Assembly (NCBI GenBank): GCA_051859245.1
Contig: JBHYGA010000001.1
Coordinates: 736,001-800,000, forward strand
DNA from: Gemmatimonadaceae bacterium
Lineage (GTDB): Bacteria > Gemmatimonadota > Gemmatimonadetes > Gemmatimonadales > Gemmatimonadaceae
Length of the DNA stretch: 64,000 nt
Direction of reading: 5' to 3'
Shown piece after piece: positions 7,377 through 20,145 of this stretch. Each line of letters opens with the position of its first letter. Position 1 is the first letter of the stretch. The translations under genes and the position numbers were made by a program. Below the pieces are notes generated by a model, which saw only the letters and a list, made by a program, of their open reading frames with translations, ran no database searches and had not been told where the DNA came from.

Positions 7377-9371
7377 TTACAGCGGGCGCTGACCGATCAC
7401 AATGGTTGGCGTCACGTTGCTCGCAATGTCAGACGTGGTGTTGCCGTTACCCAACTGACCTACATCATTGCGGCCCCAGCACGACGTGGTGAGACGATCA
7501 ACGGAGATGGCGCAGGTGAATGAGCCCGAACCGCTGGCCACATTCGCGGCGGAAACTTCGCTCGCCCGGATGGTACCGGCACGCACTGGCGTCGTGCTGC
7601 CATTCTGCAGACCCACACCAAGTTGTCCGTTGGCGTTGCTGCCCCAGCAGTAGACATCGGACTGTGTCGTCACGCCGCACACGTGGGCGAAGCCTGCGGA
7701 GATCTGACGCCAGTTGTGTCCGCCGCTGATTGCGCGCGGCGTTGACGTGGCGCTGCCTGTGCTTCCCAGACGACCGCTTGTGGAGTTGCCCCAGCAGTAG
7801 CCTGCGCCTGCTGTTGTGACACCACATGCCACCTGATTGGACGCGCTCAGCATCGCCCAGCGATGGCCACCCGTCATGGCTTGCGGCAACAACTTCGTGG
7901 TATTGCCATTCGATATCGGTGCGCCGGTGCCCGTCTCGCCCGCGCCGTCGGCACCCCAGCACCAGCCGTTACCCGCCATCGTGACTCCACACGTGAACTC
8001 GTTGCCCGTGGTCACGCTGGCAAATGCGTCACCAGACACCGTAACCGTGGGAATGTGCGACGAGACCGTGTTGCCGGCACCGAATTGTCCCCACTGATTG
8101 TTGCCCCAGCAGAAGATACGATTGTCTGTTCCGACGGCACAGACATGATCTGCACCCGCCGAGATCTGTTTGAAGCGCAGCGATGTTTCAACGGCAACTG
8201 GTGTCGCGCTCTGCCCGATCGAACTCGCGATGCCGAGCGCTCCCCAGGCGTTGTAGCCCCAGCAGTACGCGCGACCGTCGGTGCGAATACCACAGGTAGT
8301 ACGACCGAACGTGGCCAACTGGGTAAAGCGATGTCCCCCCGGCACCATCACCGGCACAGTGCTCTTCGCATCATCCGTCAGCGTTGGCAACCCAATCCGG
8401 CCCTGACGGCTGTTCAATCCCCAGCACCAGGCGATGCCACCACTCGCAATGTTGCACGCGTGCTGCGTGGCTGCGGACAACGAGCGGTACTTGATCACCA
8501 CCACTTTGCTGATCGTGCCGAACTTGCCTTCGCTGGTGGCCGTCACGGTGACCGTGCCGCGATCGCGTCCTTCAAGCACGCCCGTCATGCTGTCGATCAC
8601 GGCGATCGCGGTATCCGACACTTTCCAACGCAGGGCCCGTCCATTGAGAATGCTGTTGTCGGCCGCGCGTGTGGTGGCCGTGAGCGGCAGCGACTCCCAC
8701 GCTTCGATGGTATCGGCACTGGCGTTGATGCTGACCGTGGCAACCGGTACCACCACACTGATCGACCCTGTGCCAACCTTTCCTTCGCTGGTGGCCGTAA
8801 TCGTGGCAGTACCCGAGGCGAGTGCACGCGCTGTCCCGGTGTTGTGATCGATCTCCACGATCGCGGGTGCGTTGGACAGCCAGCGCACCGCGCGACCCGC
8901 GAGAGGTTGACCAGCGGCGTTGAGTGTGACCGCTGTCAGGGTGACGGTTTCGCCCAGTTGCATCAGGCGATTCGCGGGTGTGATCGCCACGCTGTGCACC
9001 GGTGCCGGTGCCGCGGGCTGCACGTTGATCACAACCTGCGCGCTCTTGCCCTCACTGGTGGCCGTAATCGTGACGGTGCCTTCCGCCAACGCTGTCACAA
9101 CACCGGTGGCACTGACGGTGGCCGTCGCGGCGGCGGAGGTAGTGAACGTGATGGTGCGACCGGTAAGCGTAATGTCGTTCGCGTCGCGCGCAGTGGCGGT
9201 GAGCGTGGTGGTCGCGCCCACTTCGATCACATTTGACGCTGCCACGAGTGTCACGGATGCAACAGGCGCAGGTGGTGGCGGCGGTGGTGGACTGGTGCTG
9301 TCGGAACTGCCGCAGGCGGCGAGTGCAGCGAGCATGGTACTCGCAACGAGTGCACTGAAATACCGTTTCAT
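7377..9371 (-). CDS. Lipoprotein with three Ig-like (Big_2) domains and an RCC1/BLIP-II-like beta-propeller
   Basis: Lipobox LAAC; poly-Pro linker; three 'GTxTITATSEGK' repeats; about seven 'CWGxNxxGQLG' repeats. Confidence 0.88.
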   Translation of the reverse strand: MKRYFSALVASTMLAALAACGSSDSTSPPPPPPPAPVASVTLVAASNVIEVGATTTLTATARDANDITLTGRTITFTTSAAATATVSATGVVTALAEGTVTITATSEGKSAQVVINVQPAAPAPVHSVAITPANRLMQLGETVTLTAVTLNAAGQPLAGRAVRWLSNAPAIVEIDHNTGTARALASGTATITATSEGKVGTGSISVVVPVATVSINASADTIEAWESLPLTATTRAADNSILNGRALRWKVSDTAIAVIDSMTGVLEGRDRGTVTVTATSEGKFGTISKVVVIKYRSLSAATQHACNIASGGIAWCWGLNSRQGRIGLPTLTDDAKSTVPVMVPGGHRFTQLATFGRTTCGIRTDGRAYCWGYNAWGALGIASSIGQSATPVAVETSLRFKQISAGADHVCAVGTDNRIFCWGNNQWGQFGAGNTVSSHIPTVTVSGDAFASVTTGNEFTCGVTMAGNGWCWGADGAGETGTGAPISNGNTTKLLPQAMTGGHRWAMLSASNQVACGVTTAGAGYCWGNSTSGRLGSTGSATSTPRAISGGHNWRQISAGFAHVCGVTTQSDVYCWGSNANGQLGVGLQNGSTTPVRAGTIRASEVSAANVASGSGSFTCAISVDRLTTSCWGRNDVGQLGNGNTTSDIASNVTPTIVIGQRPL

Positions 9372-9522
9372 GATAAAGCCTCTCGGTCGAAACCGAATCA
9401 GTGGCCGCCGTGCGACCGGATGTCTGTTGGGGAGCGCGTGCAGACTTTACGCGGGCGCGTGCATTCATCGAAGGGTCGTGTGACCCCCAGTGCACATGAC
9501 CTACACGAGCGGTGCGAATGGC

Positions 9523-9666
9523 ATTCAGCATGTCGTCACGCGTGAGTTCATCGAGTTGTCACGCGGCCTTCATCATTCGCTCATGTGCGTGTCATGCACA
9601 TGTCACAGAGCGTTCACGGCGTGCTCATGCGCGCGTCACGTCCGGTTCATGCGGCGGTCGCATAAT
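9523..9666 (+). promoter_or_regulatory. Array of 11-bp-period (G/T/C)TCA(C/T) direct repeats resembling PHO/OmpR-family boxes, followed by a CATAAT -10
   Basis: TCA cores at 9525, 9536, then 9548, 9559, 9570, 9581, 9592, 9603, 9614, 9625, 9636, 9647; CATAAT at 9661, 10 bp after the last TCAT. Confidence 0.7.
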
Positions 9667-9716
9667 GCAGTGTGCACACGGATGGGCCGCGTGCACACTT
9701 CATCCGGGAGGCTCAC

Positions 9717-10439
9717 ATGCTGGGAACGCTGCTTGAATCCGCCGCCGTTGCTCCACGTCGTCGCCTGAGTTCCGTTGTGTCGCTGGCGCTGCACATCGGC
9801 GCCGTTGCCGCTATTGTGGTGGCGACCGCCAAAGCGGACGAGTTGCCGCCCGAACCGCCACCGACCACGCTGACCTACGTGGATCGGCTACCCAAGCCAA
9901 AGCCACCGGTCGCGCCCGCAGGCAGCGATGTCGCGCCGAGCAGCACTACGGCAGAGGTCGCTACTGCCCTGGCGTTGGCGCCGACCTTGGTCGCGCCAGA
10001 GATTATCCCGCTCGACATTCCGGCCGTCGATCTCACGCGGGCGGTGACGGGAGACGACGACTTTGCGCGCGGCAGCACGCGTGCGCTGACCGGCGGCGAA
10101 ACCGGCGGCACCGGATCTCCGTTAGGACAGGACGGCGATGTGTGGTTTGCCCCAATGGTAGAGAAGCCAGCAGCGGTTCGCCCAGGCTCTCCCACGCCGG
10201 AGTATCCCGAGATGTTGCGCGCATCGCAGGCCGAAGGAGCGGTCCGTGCGCGGTTCGTGGTTGATACCGCAGGGCGCGTTGACCTGTCACGGTTAACGAT
10301 TCTTTCAAGTGATCATGTACTCTTTACCCGCGCGGTCGAACGCGCGCTGCGTGGAATGCGCTATCTGCCCGCCGAAGTTGGCGGACGGCCGGTCGCACAG
10401 CTTGTTGAACAAACGTTTGCCTTTACGCTGCATCGCTAG
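9717..10439 (+). CDS. TonB family energy transducer
   Basis: RBS GGGAGG; TM segment with SxxxH (SLALH); Pro-rich linker; TonB_C domain 'PEYPEMLR...GAVRARFVVDTAGRV...YLPAEVGGRPV'. Confidence 0.88.
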   Translation: MLGTLLESAAVAPRRRLSSVVSLALHIGAVAAIVVATAKADELPPEPPPTTLTYVDRLPKPKPPVAPAGSDVAPSSTTAEVATALALAPTLVAPEIIPLDIPAVDLTRAVTGDDDFARGSTRALTGGETGGTGSPLGQDGDVWFAPMVEKPAAVRPGSPTPEYPEMLRASQAEGAVRARFVVDTAGRVDLSRLTILSSDHVLFTRAVERALRGMRYLPAEVGGRPVAQLVEQTFAFTLHR

Positions 10440-10535
10440 CGGAGCGCTTTGCCCTGAGCGGGCGGCGCCCCTAGTTTACCCGCGTGGCGCCGATTCCGGC
10501 GCTCGTACTTACTCCGCCCGCTCTGGAGGCTGGTC

Positions 10536-11549
10536 ATGTCTTTCGGTGATTTTCTCAAGAAGCAATTCATCGACGTCATTCACTGGACCGAAGACGGACC
10601 GGGAGTGCTCATGGAGCGCTTCCCGATGCGTGATATGGAAATCCAGAACGGCGCCTCGCTCACCGTGCGTGAGTCGCAGATGGCGTTGTTCGTGAACGAA
10701 GGCAAAGCCGCCGATGCGTTCGGACCTGGGCTCTACAAGCTCGACACCAACACGTTGCCGCTGCTCACCAATCTCAAGAACTGGGACAAGCTCTTTCAGT
10801 CGCCGTTCAAGAGTGATCTGTATTTCTTCTCCACGCGTCTGCAAACCAATCAGCGTTGGGGCACGCAGCAGCCGATCACCATTCGCGACAAGGAGTTCGG
10901 CGCAATCCGTTTGCGCGGCTTTGGCGTGTACAGCTACCGCCTGGTGAATCCGCTCGCGTTCCATACCAACATTGCCGGTACGCAAGCGCAGTATTCAGCG
11001 AGCGAGTTGGAACCGCAGTTGCGGAACGCCGTGATTACGTCGTTCACCACGGCGTTCGCCAAGTCGCAGGTGCCGTTCCTTGACATGGCCGCGAATCAAG
11101 CCGCCGTGGCCACGCTGATCGCGGCCGAACTTGCGCCACAGTTCGCGGCCTACGGTCTCGAGCTGGCGAGTTTCACGGTCGAAAATCTGTCGCTGCCCGA
11201 CGAACTGCAGAAGCGTCTCGACGAGCGCATCTCCATGAACATGGTGGGCGACTTGCGGCAGTATGCACAGTTCCAGGCGGCGCAGTCGATTCCCATTGCC
11301 GCGGCAAACGAAGGCGGACTGGCCGGCATGGGTGTCGGTCTTGGTGCGGGCGTTGGCATTGGTGGCATGATGGCCGATGCGTTCCGTGGCGCAGCAGCGC
11401 CTGCCGCACCTGCGGCACCTGGCACACCCGCGGCACCGGCCGAGGGTGGCGCCGCGCTCACCGGCGAAACCAAGTTCTGCATTCACTGCGGCAAGCCGAT
11501 TCCCGCGGTTGCCAAGTTCTGCCACCTCTGTGGCGGTGCGCAGGCGTAA
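10536..11549 (+). CDS. SPFH/band-7 domain protein (YdjI-like) with C-terminal zinc ribbon
   Basis: FIDVIHW, LTVRESQMA, FGPG.YKLDT.TLP, SPFKSDLYF, WGT; C-terminal FCIHCG...KFCHLCG; RBS GGAGG. Confidence 0.88.
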   Translation: MSFGDFLKKQFIDVIHWTEDGPGVLMERFPMRDMEIQNGASLTVRESQMALFVNEGKAADAFGPGLYKLDTNTLPLLTNLKNWDKLFQSPFKSDLYFFSTRLQTNQRWGTQQPITIRDKEFGAIRLRGFGVYSYRLVNPLAFHTNIAGTQAQYSASELEPQLRNAVITSFTTAFAKSQVPFLDMAANQAAVATLIAAELAPQFAAYGLELASFTVENLSLPDELQKRLDERISMNMVGDLRQYAQFQAAQSIPIAAANEGGLAGMGVGLGAGVGIGGMMADAFRGAAAPAAPAAPGTPAAPAEGGAALTGETKFCIHCGKPIPAVAKFCHLCGGAQA

Positions 11550-11607
11550 TGACACGATTCCTGTCTGTCGCGAATCGTGGAGTGACGCGTTCTCGCACAT
11601 TCTGTCA

Positions 11608-12006
11608 ATGAACGGTCGCGAATGGCTGGTTGAGGCGTTCGACTGCGACGTCGCTCGCCTCACCAGTATTCCCGCGCTGCAATCGCTGTTCGACGCGCTG
11701 GTGCAGGAACTCAACCTGCATCCGGTGGGCGACGCGGTGTGGCATCAGTTCCCGACGCCCGGTGGCATCACAGGGATGTGGCTCCTCGCCGAGTCGCATT
11801 TGACGGTGCACACATTCCCGGAATTCGAATCGGCGTGCATCAATCTGTTCTGTTGCACGCCACGCGCGTCGTGCGACTGGTCGCAGCGTCTAGCCGAACT
11901 GCTTGGTGCGCGCTCGGTACACGTGCGCGTAGTCGAGCGTGCGTACGGACCAGCCGCGGCTCCGGTGTTGCCGCACGACATGACGGCTGCGCTCCCCGCG
12001 CGGTAG
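11608..12006 (+). CDS. speD: S-adenosylmethionine decarboxylase proenzyme (short prokaryotic type)
   Basis: HQF, GGITGMWLLAESHLTVHTFPE (E|S autocleavage site), INLFCC. Confidence 0.88.
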   Translation: MNGREWLVEAFDCDVARLTSIPALQSLFDALVQELNLHPVGDAVWHQFPTPGGITGMWLLAESHLTVHTFPEFESACINLFCCTPRASCDWSQRLAELLGARSVHVRVVERAYGPAAAPVLPHDMTAALPAR

Positions 12007-12021
12007 CCCACTGCATCGCCC

Positions 12022-12666
12022 ATGACCGCGCCAGCGCCGTTTTCAACCAGCTGTCCATCCTGTGGTGCGCCCATTCGATTCCGGTGGGCGCAGGCCGTGC
12101 AAACCACCTGCGATTTCTGCAAGTCGGTGTTGGTGCGCCAGGGGTTGGATCTCACCAAGGTTGGTCAGCAAGCAGACTTCCCCGTCACCGCGTCGCCCAT
12201 TCAACTGGGTGTTGAAGCGCAGTGGGGCAATCGCACGCTCATTGTGGTGGGTCGACTCACCTACGAATGGTCGCGTGGTCGATGGAACGAGTGGTACTGT
12301 CGGGTCAGTGACGGCAGCAGCGCCTGGCTGTCCGATGCGCAGCTTGAATACGCGATCACCACCGAAGTCGACGCGGGACGCGCCTTGCCCGATCCCGCCA
12401 CGCTCTCCGTTGACGACGTGGTGGAGACGGATCGCGGACGCTACACCGTGACCAGTCTGTCGCAGGCCGTGTACATCGGCACCGAAGGTGAGTTGCCATT
12501 TACCACGAGTGGTCGCGAACACAGCTGGTTTGCCGATCTGCTCGATGCGAGCGGCGGTTTTGCCACACTCGATGGCAGTGAGTCGCCGCCATTGCTGTTC
12601 GTTGGCGAGTACGTGACGTGGACATCACTTCGCGCCACCGGCGCACGTGAGTTCGCCGGATGGTAA
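12022..12666 (+). CDS. DUF4178 domain protein with N-terminal zinc ribbon
   Basis: CPSCGA...CDFCKS; WNEW; WLSDAQLEY; GTEGELPF. Confidence 0.75.
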   Translation: MTAPAPFSTSCPSCGAPIRFRWAQAVQTTCDFCKSVLVRQGLDLTKVGQQADFPVTASPIQLGVEAQWGNRTLIVVGRLTYEWSRGRWNEWYCRVSDGSSAWLSDAQLEYAITTEVDAGRALPDPATLSVDDVVETDRGRYTVTSLSQAVYIGTEGELPFTTSGREHSWFADLLDASGGFATLDGSESPPLLFVGEYVTWTSLRATGAREFAGW

Positions 12667-13979
12667 TGGCCACCGTTCCCGTGAGCGCCACAACGCTCGC
12701 CTGTCCGAATTGTGGTTCGTCCATTGCGCTCCATGCGCAAGGCTGGGCCGTGACCGTGGCGTGCAGCAGCTGCGGCTCCGTACTTGATGCGCTCGATCCG
12801 AATCTGCGTGTGCTGCAGGAACACGCGATGCGGTTGCCGCATACGCCGTCCATTCCGCTCGGTACACGCGGCACGATCCGCGGCGTTGCGTATGAAGTGA
12901 TTGGCTGCCAACGCGTGGCGATTGAAGTGGAAGGCGTGGAGTACTCATGGACGGAATACGTCTGCTTCAATCCGTATCACGGTTTCCTGTATCTCTCGGA
13001 GTATCAGGGGCACTGGAACGTGATCGAAAAGCTGCGTCGTGCACCCGGCGCGCCATCGGGTCGTAGCCGACCTGAGATCACGCTGGATGGTCGCACGTAT
13101 CACCATTTCCAGACGGCCCAGGCGCGCACCACAATGGCCATGGGTGAGTTCCCGTGGGAGCTGCGCGTTGGTGACGAAGTCAGAGCGCGTGACTTCGTGT
13201 CACCGCCGTACATCCTGTCGGCCGAAGTCTCGGATCAGGAAGTCACCTGGTCGCGTGGTGAGTACACCGCGCCGTCAGACATCGCGCATATGTTTGGCAT
13301 CCCGCGTCTTGATCGCCGGCCGGAAGGTGTGTTTGCCAATCAACCGAATCTGCACCTGCGTGCAGCACGTCGTGTGGGCACTGTGGGCGGCCCGCTGCTG
13401 ATGGTCTGGTTGTTGATGCTTGTGCTCACCATTGTATTCTCGCAGCGTGAAGACGTCTTTTCGGAGACGTACACGTACGACCGCACACGCGGCGAACAGA
13501 ACGCACTCGTGACCGCGCCGTTCGAGTTGCGCGGCCGTTCGTCGAACGTGCGCATTACGCTCCGCGCCGCGCTCGAGAACGATTGGACATATTTTGCACT
13601 GGCGCTCATTCACGACAGCACCGGCCAGGCCCGCGATGTGGGTAAACAACTCAGTTTTTATTCCGGGCGCGATAGTGATGGCAACTGGAGCGAGGGCTCC
13701 CGCAACGGGTCGGTCACGCTCTCGTCAGTGCCGTCTGGCCGCTATGTGCTTCGTGTGGCGCCAGAAGGTGGTGAGCCGGTCGGCAATCCCGTCAGCTACA
13801 CGGTGAGCATCAAGCGCGACGTCCCGGCGTATTCGCATTTCGCGATCGCGTTTTTTGCGCTCGTCATTCCGATGGCGCTGGTGTGGGCACCGGTGGTGGG
13901 CTTTGAAAGTCGCCGCTGGATGGAAAGTGATCACGGAAGCGCGCTGCTAAACTTTCCGAAAGACGAGGAACACGCATGA
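12666..13979 (+). CDS. DUF4178 domain membrane protein
   Basis: CPNCGS...CSSCGS; YSWTEY; LSEYQGHW; GEFPW; WSRGEY; two TM segments; C-terminal FESRRWMESD. ATG 12666 overlaps the upstream TAA. Confidence 0.78.
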   Translation: MATVPVSATTLACPNCGSSIALHAQGWAVTVACSSCGSVLDALDPNLRVLQEHAMRLPHTPSIPLGTRGTIRGVAYEVIGCQRVAIEVEGVEYSWTEYVCFNPYHGFLYLSEYQGHWNVIEKLRRAPGAPSGRSRPEITLDGRTYHHFQTAQARTTMAMGEFPWELRVGDEVRARDFVSPPYILSAEVSDQEVTWSRGEYTAPSDIAHMFGIPRLDRRPEGVFANQPNLHLRAARRVGTVGGPLLMVWLLMLVLTIVFSQREDVFSETYTYDRTRGEQNALVTAPFELRGRSSNVRITLRAALENDWTYFALALIHDSTGQARDVGKQLSFYSGRDSDGNWSEGSRNGSVTLSSVPSGRYVLRVAPEGGEPVGNPVSYTVSIKRDVPAYSHFAIAFFALVIPMALVWAPVVGFESRRWMESDHGSALLNFPKDEEHA

Positions 13980-14164
13980 TCCGCTCGGTGCTCTACGCCA
14001 TTTACGGAGTCGCAGTGCTCTCAGTGTTGGGCATGGCGCAGTATCGTGGATGGACCACAACACGCGGCGATAGCGCCAGCGTGGATCCGCAGTCTGTGCG
14101 CGCCAATCCCGGCGCGTACCGGTCGCCGTATTACATCCCGGGGCGCACGCTCCGCGGCAAGTAA
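13976..14164 (+). CDS. Small single-TM protein ending in ...RGK
   Basis: ATGA overlap with the upstream gene and GAGG RBS; 62 aa; N-terminal hydrophobic helix; fills the operon gap exactly. Confidence 0.75.
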   Translation: MIRSVLYAIYGVAVLSVLGMAQYRGWTTTRGDSASVDPQSVRANPGAYRSPYYIPGRTLRGK

Positions 14165-14177
14165 CAGGAGAGAACGC

Positions 14178-14390
14178 GTGGAACTCAGTGTGTGGGACAA
14201 CGTACTCGCCGCGGCGGTGTTCGCCGGACTTGGTGTGGTACTCTTCGCGGTGGCGTTCATCATTCTCGATCTGCTCACACCTGGGAAGCTGTGGCACGAG
14301 ATCAGCGAAAAGAAAAACACGGCCGCCGCAATTCTCATGGGTTCCGCGGCGATCGCGTTGGGCATGATTGTCGCGGCGGCAATCCACTGA
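14178..14390 (+). CDS. DUF350 domain membrane protein
   Basis: RBS AGGAG and GTG 14178; two TM segments; 'DLLTPGKLWHEI.EKKNTAAAI...ALGMIVAAAIH'. Confidence 0.88.
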   Translation: MELSVWDNVLAAAVFAGLGVVLFAVAFIILDLLTPGKLWHEISEKKNTAAAILMGSAAIALGMIVAAAIH

Positions 14391-14433
14391 TCGCGGTTAA
14401 GTCGCTGGCCGGTAGGCCGTCGGTGTTGAGTCC

Positions 14434-15930
14434 ATGAACGCTGCGCTGTTCGCGACGGTTTGTCTGATCGCGGCCTGCGGGCTGATCTACGAGCTGGTGG
14501 CCGGCGCGCTCGCGTCGTACTTGCTGGGCGACAGCGTCACGCAGTTCTCCACGGTGATCGGTACGTATCTGTTCGCCATGGGTATTGGCAGCTGGCTCTC
14601 GCGCTTCATTGTGCGTGGCGTGGTCACACGCTTTGTCCTCATCGAACTGTTGGTGGGAGTGATCGGCGGATTCTCGGCGCTGATTCTGTTTCTCACTTTT
14701 ACGTGGACCGACGCGTTCCGTCCGGTACTGTACGGCCTCGTCACGGTGATCGGCATATTGGTGGGGCTCGAAATCCCGCTGCTCATGCGCATCCTGCGCG
14801 AGCGCTTTTCATTCAAAGATGTAGTCGCAAACGTCCTCACGTTTGACTACGCCGGTGCGCTGGCGGCATCGCTGCTGTTCCCGCTGTTGCTGGTGCCCCG
14901 ACTTGGGCTCGTTCGCTCGGCGTTGCTCTTCGGTTTGGTGAACGTGCTGGTTGCCTTGTGGAGCACATGGTTGTTTCGCGATGTGTTGCCGCAGCGGCGC
15001 ACGCTGCAACTCATGTCGATCGCCGCGGCGCTTGTCCTTGGTGTGGGCTTCTGGAAAGGGCAGGAGATCACCACCTTCGCGGAAGAAGGGCTCTACGCCG
15101 ATCCGGTCATCCTGGCCAGGGACACGCGATACCAGCGCATTATTCTGACCAACTGGAAAGACGACTTGCGCCTGTTCCTCAACGGGCATTTGCAGTTCGC
15201 GTCGCGCGACGAGTATCGCTATCACGAAGCGCTGGTGCATCCCGGGCTGGCTGCGTTGCCACTCGCCAAACGCGTGCTGGTGCTCGGTGGTGGTGATGGG
15301 TTGGCCGTACGCGAAATCCTGCGGTATCCACAGGTGGAGCAGGTCACGCTGGTCGACCTCGACGAAGGCATGACCACGCTCTTCTCAACACACGAGCGGC
15401 TCACAGCCTTGAATCGCAGCGCGCTGAATGACGAACGCGTGCGTGTGATCAATGCCGATGCCTTCGTGTGGCTCGATGAGAACCCGGCGCAGTTCGATTT
15501 TATTGTGATCGATTTTCCCGATCCGTCGAACTACCATGTGGGCAAGTTGTACACGAGTGCGTTCTATCGGCTCGTACGTCAGCATCTGGCGAGTGATGGA
15601 TTTATAGCGGTGCAGTCCACGTCGCCGCTGTTTGCGCGTCAATCATTCTGGAGTATTGTTGCCACGCTGCAGGGTGCGGGGCTGCGCACCTATCCGTATC
15701 ACGTGTACGTGCCAAGCTTTGGCGAGTGGGGCTTTGTGATCGCCGGCGCTGTGCCGTATCAGGTGCCGCATACGCTTCCAGAGGGCCTGCGTTTTCTGCG
15801 TGCCAATACCGTGGCGTCCATGTTTGAGTTTCCGCTGGATATGGCGCCAGTGGCGGCGCAGCCCAACCGCCTGAACGATCAGGTGCTCGTCCGATACTAT
15901 GAGCAGGAGTGGGAGGCGATCAATCGATGA
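14434..15930 (+). CDS. speE: Polyamine aminopropyltransferase (spermidine synthase-like) with N-terminal multi-TM domain
   Basis: ACGLIYEL and about seven TM segments; TRYQRI, LFLNGHLQF, DEYRYHEALVHP, LVLGGGDG, IDFPDP, VPSFGEWGF. Confidence 0.9.
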   Translation: MNAALFATVCLIAACGLIYELVAGALASYLLGDSVTQFSTVIGTYLFAMGIGSWLSRFIVRGVVTRFVLIELLVGVIGGFSALILFLTFTWTDAFRPVLYGLVTVIGILVGLEIPLLMRILRERFSFKDVVANVLTFDYAGALAASLLFPLLLVPRLGLVRSALLFGLVNVLVALWSTWLFRDVLPQRRTLQLMSIAAALVLGVGFWKGQEITTFAEEGLYADPVILARDTRYQRIILTNWKDDLRLFLNGHLQFASRDEYRYHEALVHPGLAALPLAKRVLVLGGGDGLAVREILRYPQVEQVTLVDLDEGMTTLFSTHERLTALNRSALNDERVRVINADAFVWLDENPAQFDFIVIDFPDPSNYHVGKLYTSAFYRLVRQHLASDGFIAVQSTSPLFARQSFWSIVATLQGAGLRTYPYHVYVPSFGEWGFVIAGAVPYQVPHTLPEGLRFLRANTVASMFEFPLDMAPVAAQPNRLNDQVLVRYYEQEWEAINR

Positions 15931-17549
15931 GCACCGGGCCATCGCGGCGCGCGTTTCTTGGCCAACTCGCCGCTGGCTTGGCGGCTCCACTCGTTGCGAC
16001 GCCGCTGGTGTTGCGGGCCGCGCGTAGCACCTCGCCTGATGCGCCAGCACTCATAGGGCTCACCAACAAGAGCGGGCGCGAGATCGCGGGCGGATTTGTG
16101 AACGACGATGCCGCGATCGGGCATCAGCTACGCGATGGTACGTTTGCGCGCGGTGCGGGCAATCGCGAAGTACGACGAACGCGTGTTGCGATTGTTGGCG
16201 GTGGTATGGCCGGTCTCTCCGCTGGCTGGAGACTCGATCAGCTCGGACTTCGAGAGTGGCTGTGTCTTGAGCTCGGAGATTCGGCGGGCGGTAACTCGCG
16301 CGGCGGCGAAAACTCGGTGTCCCGCTATCCATGGGGCGCACACTACGTGCCTGTGCCGTCGCCCGATGCCGTGCACGTGCGCGCGTTGTTGCGCGAGGTT
16401 GGCGTGCTGCACGCCGACGGCAGCTGGGATGAGCGCACACTGTGTCATTCGCCGCAGGAGCGCATCTTTCAGCATGGTGCGTGGCACGAAGGCCTTGAGC
16501 CGCTTGATGCGGCGCCGGCGTGGGAGCGCGCCGAGTGGGAGCGGTTTGACGCGCAGGTTGCAGCGTGGCGTGCGACGGGTGCGTTTCGTGTACCGCTCGC
16601 TGGCGCGCCAGACAATGTGTCAGGTGCTGCTGCGGCCGCAACGCGCGTACTCGATCGTGTATCCGCCAACGCATGGTTCGCGTCGCAGGGATATCGCTCC
16701 CCCACATTGCGATGGTGGATAGAGTACGGCACTCGCGATGACTACGGTGCCTCGCTGACACAGGCGAGCGCGTGGGCTGCTGCACACTACTTTGCTGGCC
16801 GCCCACCCCACGAGGAAGGGCCACTCACATGGCCCGAAGGCAATGCCTTTCTGGTCAAACATCTCACCCGGCTGGCTGGTGACCGCGTGATCACCAAAGC
16901 GCCCACGTACGCCATCGAGCCGCGCGGTTCACGCTGGTTGGTGCGCACGCCAGTCGCTGACATTGAATGTGACGCGGTGGTCTGGGCCGCACCGCTGTTT
17001 GTGCTGCCGCGTGTGATGCCAGCTGTGAAGCTGCCGGTGAGCCTTGAATACGCCCCGTGGGTGGTGGCCAATATCACGCTCGACCGGCGCCCGCAGGAGC
17101 GTGGCGCCCCGATGTCGTGGGACAACGTGATCTACGGCAGTCCATCGCTTGGGTATGTGTCGGCCACGCACCAGTTCGTTGGGCGTCCGGGACCGCAGTC
17201 CGTGTGGACCTGGTATCACGCGGTCGTCGATCGACCTGCGCTAGCCGCACGAACGTGGATGCAGCAGCGACCGTGGTCGGCGTGGCGCGATGACATTGTG
17301 GGCGAACTCTCGCGCGCGCATCCGGATATTGCCGAGTGCATTACGCGCATTGATGTGCGGTACTGGGGGCACGCCATGGCGCGTCCCACGCTGGGGCTGC
17401 TCACGCGCAACGCAACGCTCGCACGCTGGAGTCCGGCGGCGCGCGTATTTCTGGCACACGCCGATCTCAGTGGCCTGTCACTCTTTGAAGAAGCGCAGTG
17501 GCACGGCGTGCAAGCCGCCGAGCGTGTGGCGCGCGCGCTCGGCGGATGA
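15927..17549 (+). CDS. Tat-exported FAD-dependent amine-oxidase-like oxidoreductase
   Basis: ATGA overlap with speE; SRRAFL twin-arginine motif; GGGMAGLSA, GGNSR, PWGAHY, WDNV, WGHAM, SLFEEA. Confidence 0.85.
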   Translation: MSTGPSRRAFLGQLAAGLAAPLVATPLVLRAARSTSPDAPALIGLTNKSGREIAGGFVNDDAAIGHQLRDGTFARGAGNREVRRTRVAIVGGGMAGLSAGWRLDQLGLREWLCLELGDSAGGNSRGGENSVSRYPWGAHYVPVPSPDAVHVRALLREVGVLHADGSWDERTLCHSPQERIFQHGAWHEGLEPLDAAPAWERAEWERFDAQVAAWRATGAFRVPLAGAPDNVSGAAAAATRVLDRVSANAWFASQGYRSPTLRWWIEYGTRDDYGASLTQASAWAAAHYFAGRPPHEEGPLTWPEGNAFLVKHLTRLAGDRVITKAPTYAIEPRGSRWLVRTPVADIECDAVVWAAPLFVLPRVMPAVKLPVSLEYAPWVVANITLDRRPQERGAPMSWDNVIYGSPSLGYVSATHQFVGRPGPQSVWTWYHAVVDRPALAARTWMQQRPWSAWRDDIVGELSRAHPDIAECITRIDVRYWGHAMARPTLGLLTRNATLARWSPAARVFLAHADLSGLSLFEEAQWHGVQAAERVARALGG

Positions 17550-17554
17550 TGCCA

Positions 17555-18733
17555 TCAGCTTGAGTAGTACGCCGCGTTCTCGTCGATGTACTCGCGCGTG
17601 AGATCACAACCAAACGCGGTGGCCTGTCCGTCAGCCACACCGAGATCTACTTCCAGCTCTACCAGTTCATGGCTGAGCGCGGCGCGTACGGTGCCATCGT
17701 CAAACGGCAATCGCTGACCACCGCGAACGACGGGAAACCGATTGATCCAGGCGTCCGTGCTCTCCGGTCGGATGGTGCAGTCAAAGCACTTGCCAACGGC
17801 CATGAGCAAGCGCCCCACGTTCGGATCGGCGCCGTGCACCATGGTCTTGACGAGCGGCGAGTTCACGATGCTCTTGGCGACGACACGTGCGTCGTGCGTT
17901 GACGCCGCTCCACGGACCTGCACGCGCAGCAGATGTTTTGCGCCTTCGCCGTCACGCGCCAGAATTTCTGTCATGCGCACACAGCCCTTGAGCAGCGCCG
18001 CACGAAACGCCTGCTCCGATACCGGTCCAGCGTGACCGTTCGCGAGAATCGCACACGTGTCGGATGTGCTGGTGTCGCTGTCAACCGAGAGCATGTTGAA
18101 CGAATCAGCGACCGCATCACGCAACATGGCGTCGAGCGTGGTCGCGTCAAACGCGGCATCGGTAAAGATGTAGACAAGCATCGTGGCCATGTTGGGTTCG
18201 ATCATTCCCGAACCTTTTGCCACCCAGGTGATCGTGGCGTTTTCCACGCTGAGAGAAATCGCCTTGGGGTGAGAGTCGGTGGTCATGATGCCTTCGGCGC
18301 CCACGAGCGGATCATGCTGCAGCTCACGCGCAATGCCGGGAATCCCTGCTTCGATCATTTTGATCGGCAGCGGCACGCCAATTACGCCCGTCGAACTCAC
18401 GAGCACACGTTCGGCGTCTGTCCCAAGTTCTGTGGCTGCCGCTTTGGCCATGCGACGCGCGTGCTCAACACCAATCGCACCCGTCGCCACGTTGCTCACT
18501 TTGCTGTTGGCAATAATGGCGCGGAGTGAACCACCACGAATGGTTTCGCGTCCGAGAATAATCGGCGCGCCAGGAAAGTGATTCCGCGTAAACACCGCGG
18601 CCGCGGCCGCGTCCACGTCGCTCACAAAAATGGTGAGATCTTTCGCGCTCGGCTTGAGTCCGACATTTCGGCTCGCGCAGCGAAAGCCGCGCGGGAAGAC
18701 TGGCGTGGTGTGGAAGTCAGTGTTCTGAGGCAT
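17555..18733 (-). CDS. argJ: Ornithine acetyltransferase ArgJ
   Basis: AAVFTRN, SSTGVIG, IMTTD, KGSGMIEPNMATML, DSDTSTSD, DGEGA, SPLVKT, DPNVGR, GCDLT. Confidence 0.95.
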   Translation of the reverse strand: MPQNTDFHTTPVFPRGFRCASRNVGLKPSAKDLTIFVSDVDAAAAAVFTRNHFPGAPIILGRETIRGGSLRAIIANSKVSNVATGAIGVEHARRMAKAAATELGTDAERVLVSSTGVIGVPLPIKMIEAGIPGIARELQHDPLVGAEGIMTTDSHPKAISLSVENATITWVAKGSGMIEPNMATMLVYIFTDAAFDATTLDAMLRDAVADSFNMLSVDSDTSTSDTCAILANGHAGPVSEQAFRAALLKGCVRMTEILARDGEGAKHLLRVQVRGAASTHDARVVAKSIVNSPLVKTMVHGADPNVGRLLMAVGKCFDCTIRPESTDAWINRFPVVRGGQRLPFDDGTVRAALSHELVELEVDLGVADGQATAFGCDLTREYIDENAAYYSS

Positions 18734-18847
18734 GGGGACTCACGGTGCGCGGAGCAGAAAATGCAAACGTCCCGCAGGAGGGCGGGACGCGTGCACGGAA
18801 CATAGCATTTTCAGTCGCGTGAAGCGACTGGCTGTGGGGCCGCACCC

Positions 18848-19303
18848 CTACGGCGCGACCACGTTCACATGCCCAACCATGCCAAGCAACGCGTGGGGGT
18901 CACACTGCACAAAGAGGCGTTTGCCCACAGCGTCGGGCACAACCACCTCATCGGTCTGACCAGGGAGCTGCAGCATCGGTCCAGCGGGCGGCAGACCACG
19001 CACACCGGAGTTGGAGTCGGCCACGAAGTGCACGTTGTGCACGCCGCTCACGAGCACGTACTTGAGCACATCACCGGGCTTGGCCGTCACCTCGGCGGGT
19101 TTGAAGTAGTTGCCGCTGTCATCCATGATCATTTCGACCGTGTGCACGGTGCCGGTTCGTGCGGGCAGGATACCGGCCGACTCCGTCAGCTCGGCGGTGT
19201 CATCGGCATCGTCGCCTTCGTCGGTGTCCGGTTTCGGCGCGTCGCCGCCGCATGCGGCGAGTAGAACCGTTGAGGCAAGTAGAAAGCAGGAGAAAGTACG
19301 CAT
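18848..19303 (-). CDS. Cupredoxin (plastocyanin/azurin family) lipoprotein
   Basis: Lipobox LAAC; type-1 Cu ligands HNV...CDPH...GM. Confidence 0.88.
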   Translation of the reverse strand: MRTFSCFLLASTVLLAACGGDAPKPDTDEGDDADDTAELTESAGILPARTGTVHTVEMIMDDSGNYFKPAEVTAKPGDVLKYVLVSGVHNVHFVADSNSGVRGLPPAGPMLQLPGQTDEVVVPDAVGKRLFVQCDPHALLGMVGHVNVVAP

Positions 19304-19356
19304 TGAAATATTCCGGGCGTTGAAGGTTGGAGCAGTGAAACAAACAAACGGTCAGT

Positions 19357-20145
19357 TCAGAAGTCTTTTCGCATGAAGCTTCGGCCCGCAGCGATCGCCG
19401 GCAACAAAATCCACAGCGCGAGAGTCGCCAGCGTGGCGATTGCGCCGCGATACCCACCGAGCACATTGGCGAGCACCGCGCCCGTGTAGCCCATCAGTGC
19501 GGCGCTGTCGAGTTGCAGCATGAGCACGGTGCGCGCGAGATCCACCGGGTTGGCGAACATGAGCGCGAGCATCGGCTTTTCGAGCGGCCAGTCTGAGTAC
19601 GCGGTCGCGACCCACACCACGAGTCCGTCGTACAGTACCGTGGCCGCGAACCAGATACCGAGCGCGAGACCAAGCGCCTTCAGGCGATCATCCTGAGCGG
19701 CGCCAATCCAGAGCGCGATGGCGGCGAAGCACATGGTGAGGGCAGTGCCTACGAGCAGGTACATGGCCAGCAACGGTGCGATTGCCGGCACAAGCTCGCG
19801 ATGCAGCAGCAACGGAATCGAGATGCCAATTGCGTAGGCGAGCACCAATGGAATGGTGAGGCCAAGATAGAGTCCACACCACAGCGCACGTCGAGGCAGT
19901 GGCTGCGCGAGCAGCAGTTCGGTGAACTCGCGTGACGTGTGCCAGTACACCACGCCGAACACGGTGATTACCAATGGTACCAGGAGCAAGACCACGTTCA
20001 ACAATCCACTGAGCGCGCGCGGTGCGCTTCCGCTGAGCTGATAGAGCGCCTCAGTGAGCACTGCCAGCAATACGGTGTACGACAGCACCCAGCGATTGCG
20101 GGAAAGCTCTGCCACCTGCGCGCGAACCACGGCGAGGATCAGCAT
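19357..20145 (-). CDS. nosY: NosY ABC transporter permease
   Basis: SREFTELLLAQPL, YDG, NPVDLAR, SAALMGYTGA, C-terminal RKDF; position in the nos cluster. Confidence 0.9.
   Translation of the reverse strand: MLILAVVRAQVAELSRNRWVLSYTVLLAVLTEALYQLSGSAPRALSGLLNVVLLLVPLVITVFGVVYWHTSREFTELLLAQPLPRRALWCGLYLGLTIPLVLAYAIGISIPLLLHRELVPAIAPLLAMYLLVGTALTMCFAAIALWIGAAQDDRLKALGLALGIWFAATVLYDGLVVWVATAYSDWPLEKPMLALMFANPVDLARTVLMLQLDSAALMGYTGAVLANVLGGYRGAIATLATLALWILLPAIAAGRSFMRKDF

Follow-up and report, generated by a model that had tools for sequence, protein, structure and literature searches.

A Gemmatimonadaceae operon with a membrane-fused aminopropyltransferase: a candidate system for aminopropyl transfer at the cell envelope

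We examined an eight-gene operon in a 64,000-nucleotide stretch of DNA from a Gemmatimonadaceae bacterium (contig JBHYGA010000001.1, positions 736,001 to 800,000; hereafter the window, whose first letter is position 1). The operon occupies positions 10536-17549 of the + strand and combines SpeD, a homologue of S-adenosylmethionine (SAM, AdoMet) decarboxylase, with SpeE, an aminopropyltransferase that carries an N-terminal domain of seven transmembrane (7-TM) helices. All eight of the co-directional genes that a preliminary description had placed in this interval were found there. They encode, in order, an SPFH/band-7 protein, SpeD, two DUF4178 proteins (DUF4178a and DUF4178b), a microprotein of 62 amino acids (aa), a DUF350 protein, the membrane SpeE, and a flavin amine-oxidase-family protein that is predicted to be exported by the twin-arginine translocation (Tat) pathway. 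The operon is best explained as the Gemmatimonas-lineage version of an envelope system that is modular, widespread and disseminated by horizontal transfer. We incline, by a small measure over even, to the view that the system is dedicated to aminopropyl transfer and that its chemistry occurs on the outer face of the inner membrane.

In the mechanism that we favor, cytoplasmic SpeD, judged by its retained catalytic residues and its context, would produce decarboxylated SAM (dcSAM). The 7-TM domain of SpeE would carry a cationic substrate along buried carboxylates, and the outward-facing SpeE head would have the flavin amine oxidase, exported by Tat, as its neighbor. In this arrangement, a primary amine would be aminopropylated, and amines oxidized, on the outer surface of the inner membrane, in place of bulk spermidine synthesis in the cytoplasm. 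The SPFH, DUF4178a, DUF4178b and DUF350 proteins would follow a logic similar to that of the Bacillus subtilis PspA-YdjGHI proteins, and this scaffold module probably assembles or regulates the enzymes under membrane stress.

Conservation and modular arrangement of the operon

A scan of one genome per species identified at least 600 stretches that encode relatives of the membrane SpeE, of which the best 80 (55-81% identity) were kept. These loci are spread over Gemmatimonadota, Acidobacteriota, Alpha-, Beta- and Gammaproteobacteria, Myxococcota and Bacteroidota. Neighboring genes were counted by tblastn with ten window proteins at the 56 of the 80 loci that have at least 4 kb upstream and at least 3.3 kb downstream. 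DUF4178b and DUF4178a are same-strand neighbors of the SpeE relative in 50 and 49 of the 56 loci, respectively, the oxidase in 45 (48 when counted anywhere in the locus), SpeD in 39 (41 anywhere) and the SPFH protein in 35. DUF350 was matched in 44 loci and the microprotein in 30, although tblastn counts are too low for these two very short proteins. The full set of seven partners adjoins the SpeE relative at 22 loci. In contrast, the TonB and ArgJ genes that flank the operon in the window were each matched at 0 of the 56 loci by the same test. The neighborhood check proposed in the preliminary description thus has the partners adjoining SpeE in 30 to 50 loci and the flanking genes in none. 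The gene arrangement exceeds chance, and the counts support the eight genes as a conserved functional unit, not merely speDE with passengers. At least six phyla share the gene set.

The order of the genes is not fixed, as SpeD is placed downstream of the oxidase in the proteobacterial loci. Additionally, eight loci of the Competibacter, Contendobacter, Accumulibacter and Gallionella types contain SpeE alone or SpeE with the oxidase. We followed up three of these split loci in genomes titled Accumulibacter (L081, genome G121), Gallionella (L082, G123) and Contendobacter (L083, G122). In all three, two DUF4178 domains, in one open frame of 637-666 aa, are found at a distant locus and a single AdoMet decarboxylase (AdoMetDC) at a third place. 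The scaffold genes lie hundreds of kb or contigs away from the SpeE-oxidase pair. Two of the three distant loci have the order SPFH-DUF4178a-DUF4178b-microORF (a small open reading frame), with the microORF ending in YHK, while in the third stretch, which ends at a contig end, SPFH was unmatched. Only one of these distant stretches gave a DUF350 match. Because the modules still co-occur in three of three genomes in which they are separated over several loci, the system is modular, consisting of a scaffold module, an enzyme module and SpeD, which co-occur even when unlinked.

Within the phylum the system is sporadic. In a sample of 121 Gemmatimonadota genomes, one of them unpublished and used only in the denominator, SpeE open reading frames (ORFs) of the window type (504-576 aa, 116-125 bits) occur in five. 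SpeE of canonical size (276-308 aa, at least 149 bits) occurs in four of the 121 among the matches listed, with six weaker matches besides. This sporadic spread, and the close relatives found in other phyla, are as expected of an accessory system that can be transferred. Many Gemmatimonadota (G002-G118) also have very long ORFs of about 800-1400 aa, between one and six per genome, in which a Spermine_synth domain scores weakly (45-97 bits). These belong to another, larger fused family than the window SpeE, and none was found in the window's own genome.

The enzymes, the microprotein and the scaffold proteins

The membrane SpeE (14434-15930, 498 aa) is of the PRK03612 type, matching NF002956 over residues 2-495 with 699.5 bits (cut-off 472) and PF01564 (Spermine_synth) over residues 261-436 with 122.5 bits. 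It falls under the cut-offs of the canonical SpeE equivalogs (TIGR00417, 127.8 vs 249.55; NF002010, 157.5 vs 260) and reaches only 28.9 bits with the NF037959 'fused MFS/spermidine synthase' model. Three motifs, D259-E-Y-R-Y-H-E265, G285-G-G-D-G289 and D360-x-x-D363-P364, are invariant across 40 membrane SpeE sequences. These catalytic and dcSAM-binding motifs (DExxYHE, GGGDG and DxxDP) line up with those of solved enzymes, and by sequence the protein looks active, that is, like a catalytically competent aminopropyltransferase. The nearest solved relatives are the Thermus thermophilus agmatine/triamine SpeE (1uir, 3anx) and a plant thermospermine synthase (6bq2), with phmmer E-values around 1e-31 to 1e-30 against the solved soluble aminopropyltransferases. 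Foldseek matched the C-terminal 280 residues to the solved enzymes with E-values of 5e-17 to 3e-15 and TM-scores of 0.73-0.79 on the target. These soluble enzymes have the same fold and catalytic motifs as the C-terminal part of SpeE, but no membrane domain, and no membrane-fused SpeE was found among the solved-structure matches of either the sequence search or Foldseek.

An AlphaFold2 (AF2) model of the membrane SpeE built on a 40-row alignment has a mean predicted local distance difference test (pLDDT) score of 87.4. It consists of seven long helices within residues 2-220, in line with the roughly seven segments of the preliminary description, followed by the catalytic domain. With seven transmembrane (TM) helices, the N-terminus would lie on one face of the membrane and the catalytic head on the other. 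The loops on the N-terminal side (2-3, 4-5 and 6-7) contain on average 2.73, 3.52 and 2.83 Lys and Arg residues across the 40 sequences, compared with 0.00, 0.88 and 1.40 for the loops on the side of the head (1-2, 3-4 and 5-6). By the positive-inside rule, loops rich in Lys and Arg face the cytoplasm. Considering the seven helices and the Lys/Arg-rich loops on the N-terminal side, the catalytic head is most likely on the periplasmic face. Four carboxylates within the TM helices (E20, E71, E113 and D138) are invariant in the 40 sequences, as is D33 in the first outer loop, and the four buried carboxylates may form a path for a cationic substrate.

A complex prediction for the membrane SpeE and the microprotein scored 0.01 (mark 0.32), a value that bears neither way on their pairing. 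Longer fused forms of SpeE were considered as evidence for the topology and set aside. Fifteen such proteins were found, and the six apparent SpeE-oxidase 'fusions' that were inspected (P0001-P0005 and P0009) have Arg/Ala-rich junk between the two bodies and look like frameshift read-throughs or miscalls across the ATGA overlap of the two genes. One 'fusion' of 1287 aa, labeled as eukaryotic, is a gene call that joins four genes of this operon.

SpeD (11608-12006, 132 aa) is a homologue of the class 1b SAM decarboxylases (PF02675, AdoMet_dc, 80 bits). Aligned to the Thermotoga maritima AdoMetDC (1tlu), it keeps the processing serine of the ESH motif, the histidine of HT and the cysteine of FxC (here FCC). 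The roles of the corresponding T. maritima residues, S63, H68 and C83, are given in the accessible text of PMC10407285. The score against TIGR03330 (63.5) is short of the cut-off of 75.65. Diagnostic residues for neofunctionalised SpeD proteins that act on Arg or Orn are given in a figure of the same source. For the window SpeD, linkage to SpeE suggests that the substrate is AdoMet rather than either amino acid.

The oxidase (15927-17549, 540 aa) begins with SRRAFLGQLAAGLAAPLVA, in which a twin-arginine motif (SRRAFL) is followed by a hydrophobic stretch. A pattern search found the RR motif in 58 of the 61 homologues; in two of the remaining three, RR can be seen by eye. Besides the Tat motif, 18 homologues have a lipobox-like Cys. 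Although the Pfam TAT_signal model matches only one of 26 family members, the N-terminal sequence predicts Tat export. The window protein has no match to PF01593 (Amino_oxidase) at E<=0.01, matching only NAD_binding_8, DAO and FAD_binding_2, whereas 22 of 26 aligned homologues do match PF01593 (best E 4e-21). A profile of the oxidase family finds L-amino-acid, monoamine and putrescine oxidases in the PDB, with about 300 positions aligned to putrescine oxidase.

The microprotein (13976-14164) has no match to any Pfam or NCBIfam family, and the ESM Atlas clusters of such proteins lack names. The last residue is Lys in all 41 homologues identified by tblastn (GK in 39 and HK in two; the window copy ends in RGK), and further homologues were recovered by motif and position searches. 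In 29 aligned microproteins, which are 34-61% identical to the window copy, G25, P38, R42, N44, P45, G46, Y48, R49, Y52 and K62 are invariant, and the conserved core reads PxSVRxNPGxYRxxY. The N-terminus resembles a signal peptide, in which a hydrophobic stretch comes after one or two basic residues. A Q/E-Y-R-G-W motif is carried by 34 of the 41 homologues, preceded by a small residue at -1 in 30 of the 34 and at -3 in 32, as at signal-peptidase sites. Among 30 further loci with no tblastn match, 18 contain small TM ORFs that end in Lys. As a control, small TM ORFs upstream of SpeE were collected with no regard to how they end. Of these 35 ORFs, 15 have a terminal Lys; the next most common ending is Gly, found in seven, at the DUF350 position. 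Judged by its sequence, the microprotein is a conserved, signal-peptide-like candidate exported peptide with an invariant C-terminal lysine.

The SPFH protein (10536-11549, 337 aa; PF13421, 245 bits) is a YdjI/SamI-like Band_7_1 protein with a C-terminal zinc ribbon (Zn_Ribbon_1, residues 314-333) and no TM segment, and is predicted to be cytoplasmic. Both DUF4178 proteins combine a zinc ribbon with a DUF4178 domain and score above the PF13785 cut-off of 25. DUF4178a (12022-12666, 214 aa, 55.4 bits) is soluble, with no TM segment, while DUF4178b (12660-13979, 439 aa, 84.6 bits) is a bitopic protein with two TM segments in which C15, C18, C35 and C38 are invariant. In the AF2 model of DUF4178b (pLDDT 90.8), helices at 233-260 and 391-421 flank strands at 264-386. 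The predicted topology has the zinc-ribbon/DUF4178 half and the C-terminal tail inside and a beta-sandwich of about 125 aa outside. This topology, derived from the positive-inside rule, is self-consistent and agrees with the use of the same rule on SpeE. A fold assignment for DUF4178b was attempted and rejected, as Foldseek against the PDB gave only generic beta-sandwiches (Cry-toxin domains, phage fibers and lectins) with TM-scores of at most 0.23 and a root-mean-square deviation of about 27 A. Sequence searches of the PDB with DUF4178b and the SPFH protein gave only the LysW zinc ribbon (E 0.3). DUF350 (14178-14390, 70 aa), a membrane protein of the YjfL family, has two hydrophobic segments and exceeds the PF03994 cut-off of 26 with 53.8 bits.

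These proteins resemble those of the B. subtilis pspA-ydjGHI (samGHI) operon, in which, according to the accessible text of PMC8581546 and PMC13713150, membrane proteins encoded by the operon recruit the SPFH protein YdjI/SamI. In both systems the SPFH protein is cytosolic, of the Band_7_1 type and equipped with a zinc ribbon; one of the B. subtilis membrane proteins has zinc ribbons and a TM segment. However, samGHI, as described in those texts, lacks an aminopropyltransferase, AdoMetDC, DUF350, DUF4178 and an amine oxidase, and the window operon has no PspA; a PspA gene is found elsewhere in the genome (at G000:C5). The combination of predicted cytoplasmic components (SPFH, SpeD and the zinc-ribbon/DUF4178 parts) with a predicted extracytoplasmic oxidase, DUF4178b beta-sandwich and SpeE head agrees with the membrane-assembled system envisaged in the preliminary description.

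Polyamine genes, known systems and alternative explanations

The source assembly (4.70 Mb, 99.87% complete) contains one strong Spermine_synth match, the operon's own SpeE. A search for a separate soluble speE, a check that the preliminary description had proposed, gave no strong match. This leaves housekeeping or free-polyamine synthesis as a possible function of the operon on the genome sequence alone. The search did give a 243-aa soluble ORF at G000:C4:455103-455834 (+) with a weak spermidine-synthase-like methyltransferase core (PF01564, 28.5 bits; PRK03612, 33 bits). There are two AdoMet_dc matches in the genome, SpeD and one outside the window. The latter, at G000:C1:678953-679381 (-), scores 60.5 bits and is probably no pyruvoyl enzyme, as it has EGGH in place of ESH and no cysteine at the catalytic position.

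The operon contains no ornithine, arginine or lysine decarboxylase, as the preliminary description had noted. However, the argument drawn from this absence is weak, as the genome encodes SpeA (857 bits), agmatine deiminase and an arginase-family protein. It also encodes LysA and a deoxyhypusine-synthase homologue, while no nspC-type decarboxylase was found among its two Orn_Arg_deC_N matches. By this gene content, agmatine and putrescine can be made independently of the operon. A separate triamine route would be possible given the deoxyhypusine-synthase homologue, and homospermidine could plausibly be made without the operon as well. A literature search on the polyamine content of Gemmatimonas returned no relevant paper.

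The operon family is not new, contrary to the suggestion in the preliminary description that this is an undescribed system. Ravi et al. 2024 (mSystems, PMC11237479), in the accessible text, describe operons that contain a 7-TM-fused spermine/spermidine-synthase-like protein, DUF350 (YjfL) and DUF4178, and a variant in which band-7 replaces the PspA/CesT dyad and AdoMetDC and a polyamine oxidase are added. [quoted passage not shown] The 7TM-SpeE, DUF350, DUF4178, AdoMetDC and a protein of the amine-oxidase family are common to that variant and the window operon. The band-7 protein they describe is fused to two TM segments and SHOCT, whereas the SPFH protein here is Band_7_1 with a C-terminal zinc ribbon, no SHOCT match and no TM segment. 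The window operon also differs from their description in having two DUF4178 genes, one of them membrane-spanning. In a Shewanella operon in the same paper, 'LipoSIG+Ctha_1186+Low-comp' stands directly upstream of DUF350, in the slot of the microprotein, so that a small exported protein in this slot is already in print. Neither the head-outside topology nor the invariant terminal lysine of the microprotein is mentioned in the accessible portions of that paper. The preliminary statement that no product has been demonstrated stands, as none was found in the accessible literature on the operon type. What is new here is the SpeE topology, the Lys-ended microprotein, the inventory of polyamine genes in the genome, the sporadic spread in the phylum, and the modules that are split and yet co-occur.

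The pairing of AdoMetDC with a membrane-fused spermidine synthase (SpdSyn)-like protein is among the larger unexplained pieces of polyamine-type chemistry. Work by Li, Kurihara, Kim, Liang and Michael in 2019 (Biochem J 476:2579) is said to have identified this pair in thousands of genomes. Spermidine was reportedly absent in the organisms they tested, and the fusion reportedly fails to complement an E. coli speE mutant. Passages that cite this work describe clusters with AdoMetDC, a membrane-fused SpdSyn-like protein and DUF350, as in the window; the fusion reportedly makes neither spermidine nor spermine and may aminopropylate something else. The accessible text of PMC12803844 likewise cites Li 2019 for bacterial membrane-aminopropyltransferase fusions being experimentally uninvolved in spermidine or spermine synthesis. 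Comparative genomics ties the membrane-fused SpeE type to membrane-stress (PspA/SPFH) systems. The window operon adds no new system and narrows the question to the side of the membrane on which the head lies, to the Lys-ended candidate acceptor, and to whether free aminopropylated polyamines are made.

A related case is Pseudomonas aeruginosa PA4773-PA4775, which, in work attributed to Johnson et al. 2012, reportedly gives free surface spermidine from a SpeE of the soluble type. There, a second speD/speE pair reportedly serves envelope protection and not bulk polyamine supply, and, unlike the window operon, the cluster is not known to have a DUF4178, DUF350 or SPFH protein, a microprotein or a Tat oxidase. 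Mycobacterium tuberculosis Rv2597-Rv2601 is presumably a relative of the cluster, and the literature on it gave nothing informative.

Several points weigh against an envelope-dedicated system. The operon could be the only route in this genome to spermidine or another aminopropylated polyamine, because there is no other strong aminopropyltransferase, only one AdoMetDC has an intact processing serine, and agmatine and putrescine can be made. The closest solved relatives of SpeE are the agmatine/triamine and thermospermine synthases named above, and none of the residues that SpeE has in common with polyamine-forming enzymes is lost, the second Asp of DxxDP among them. The predicted head-outside topology has the positive-inside rule and the predicted helix count as its sole basis. 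We know of no SAM-derived donor that is used in the periplasm or otherwise outside the cytoplasm, and SpeD has no export signal. The invariant C-terminal lysine could be structural instead of marking a substrate. Finally, the fusion of Li 2019 may be of the NF037959 'MFS' type, which the window SpeE matches at only 28.9 bits, and not of the PRK03612 type.

The main alternative is that SpeE makes free polyamine at the membrane, aminopropylating putrescine, agmatine or a triamine from the SpeA pathway. The 7-TM domain would then export the product or take up the acceptor, the periplasmic oxidase would trim or recycle it, and the SPFH, DUF4178 and DUF350 proteins would only regulate output under stress, so that the operon would function much as P. 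aeruginosa PA4773-4775 reportedly does with surface spermidine. The lone strong Spermine_synth match in a nearly complete genome, the SpeA, agmatine deiminase and arginase-family genes, the lack of an nspC-type decarboxylase, the intact catalytic and amine-binding motifs of SpeE, solved relatives that act on agmatine or polyamines, and the alignment of the oxidase profile to putrescine oxidase are all consistent with this. We nevertheless consider it unlikely, if far from negligible. It is at odds with the finding attributed to Li 2019 in the accessible text of PMC12803844, and it leaves unexplained both the invariant Lys-ending microprotein and the tight co-occurrence with six further genes, even at split loci. 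Additionally, the scarcity of this SpeE type in the phylum (5 of 121 genomes) and the separate triamine route that the deoxyhypusine-synthase homologue would allow speak against a housekeeping role.

The acceptor could instead be an amine-bearing lipid or envelope polymer, such as phosphatidylethanolamine, an ornithine or lysine lipid or a peptidoglycan stem amine, with aminopropylation adding positive charge to the envelope and the microprotein and DUF350 serving as structural subunits. The attachment of the catalytic domain to a 7-TM domain whose intramembrane residues are conserved, a predicted outer-face head where such acceptors are exposed, and a context of membrane-stress scaffolds (SPFH here, and the PspA link in the accessible text of Ravi et al., PMC11237479) would suit such a function. 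However, no lipid-handling domain or lipid-biosynthesis gene is co-conserved among the SpeE loci, the buried carboxylates seem better suited to a cationic soluble substrate than to a lipid head group, and the amine oxidase is left with no role; we regard this explanation as quite improbable. We think it very unlikely that the operon serves chiefly in membrane stress or as a scaffold, with SpeD, SpeE and the oxidase sensing or buffering polyamines and making no dedicated product, in line with the phrase 'monitors polyamine concentration' of Ravi et al. The SPFH-DUF4178a-DUF4178b-microORF-DUF350 module can have its own locus apart from the enzymes, and related operons have PspA/CesT in place of band-7 in the accessible text of PMC11237479, both of which would fit. 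However, the invariant catalytic residues of SpeD and SpeE argue for real turnover, and the modules co-occur genome-wide in all three split cases.

Returning to dedicated aminopropyl transfer at the envelope, the leading candidate for the acceptor is the invariant C-terminal lysine of the microprotein, although we hold this assignment to be doubtful, and a polyamine, agmatine or an amine lipid is possible instead. In the fullest version of the mechanism, SpeE would move dcSAM through its 7-TM domain and aminopropylate the C-terminal lysine of the microprotein outside the cytoplasm, the Tat oxidase would process the adduct, and the SPFH/DUF4178 membrane-stress scaffold would control the process. 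We give this version little credence. If it were true, the operon would yield a periplasmic peptide that is ribosomally encoded and polyamine-tailed (or aldehyde-bearing), and the reaction would be the first SAM-derived alkyl transfer beyond the cytoplasm and the first bacterial protein aminopropylation. A full-text literature search on aminopropyl transfer, microproteins and C-terminal lysines returned nothing relevant.

Gene junctions and flanking regions

The tight coupling with start/stop overlaps noted in the preliminary description is borne out at three of the seven junctions. DUF4178a and DUF4178b overlap by 7 nucleotides (nt), and both DUF4178b/microprotein and SpeE/oxidase share an ATGA. 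At the remaining four junctions the genes are 58, 15, 13 and 43 nt apart. The SPFH gene has GGAGG 8 nt ahead of its ATG. The frame of SpeD opens at 11377, but that stretch overlaps the SPFH gene, so the start is likely the ATG at 11608. DUF350 lies in the frame of ORF 14046-14390 and likely starts at the GTG at 14178, which has AGGAGA 7 nt before it. ORF 14192-14437 was rejected as the DUF350 gene, being in the wrong frame; the PF03994 match falls in the frame of ORF 14046-14390. A scan of 9400-18900 for promoter and terminator consensus sequences gave sites no more frequent than in shuffled sequence.

The operon is flanked by a TonB-like gene on the same strand and by a convergent argJ. Further out, a gene at 7377-9371 (-) encodes a 664-aa protein in which RCC1 repeats (WD40_RLD, 162.6 bits) come after three Big_2 Ig-like domains, and is not co-conserved with the operon. 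On the other side, a gene for a cupredoxin-like protein (Copper-bind, 33.7 bits) at 18848-20145 (-) adjoins an ABC-2 permease gene, and the two may be part of a copper-enzyme maturation cluster.

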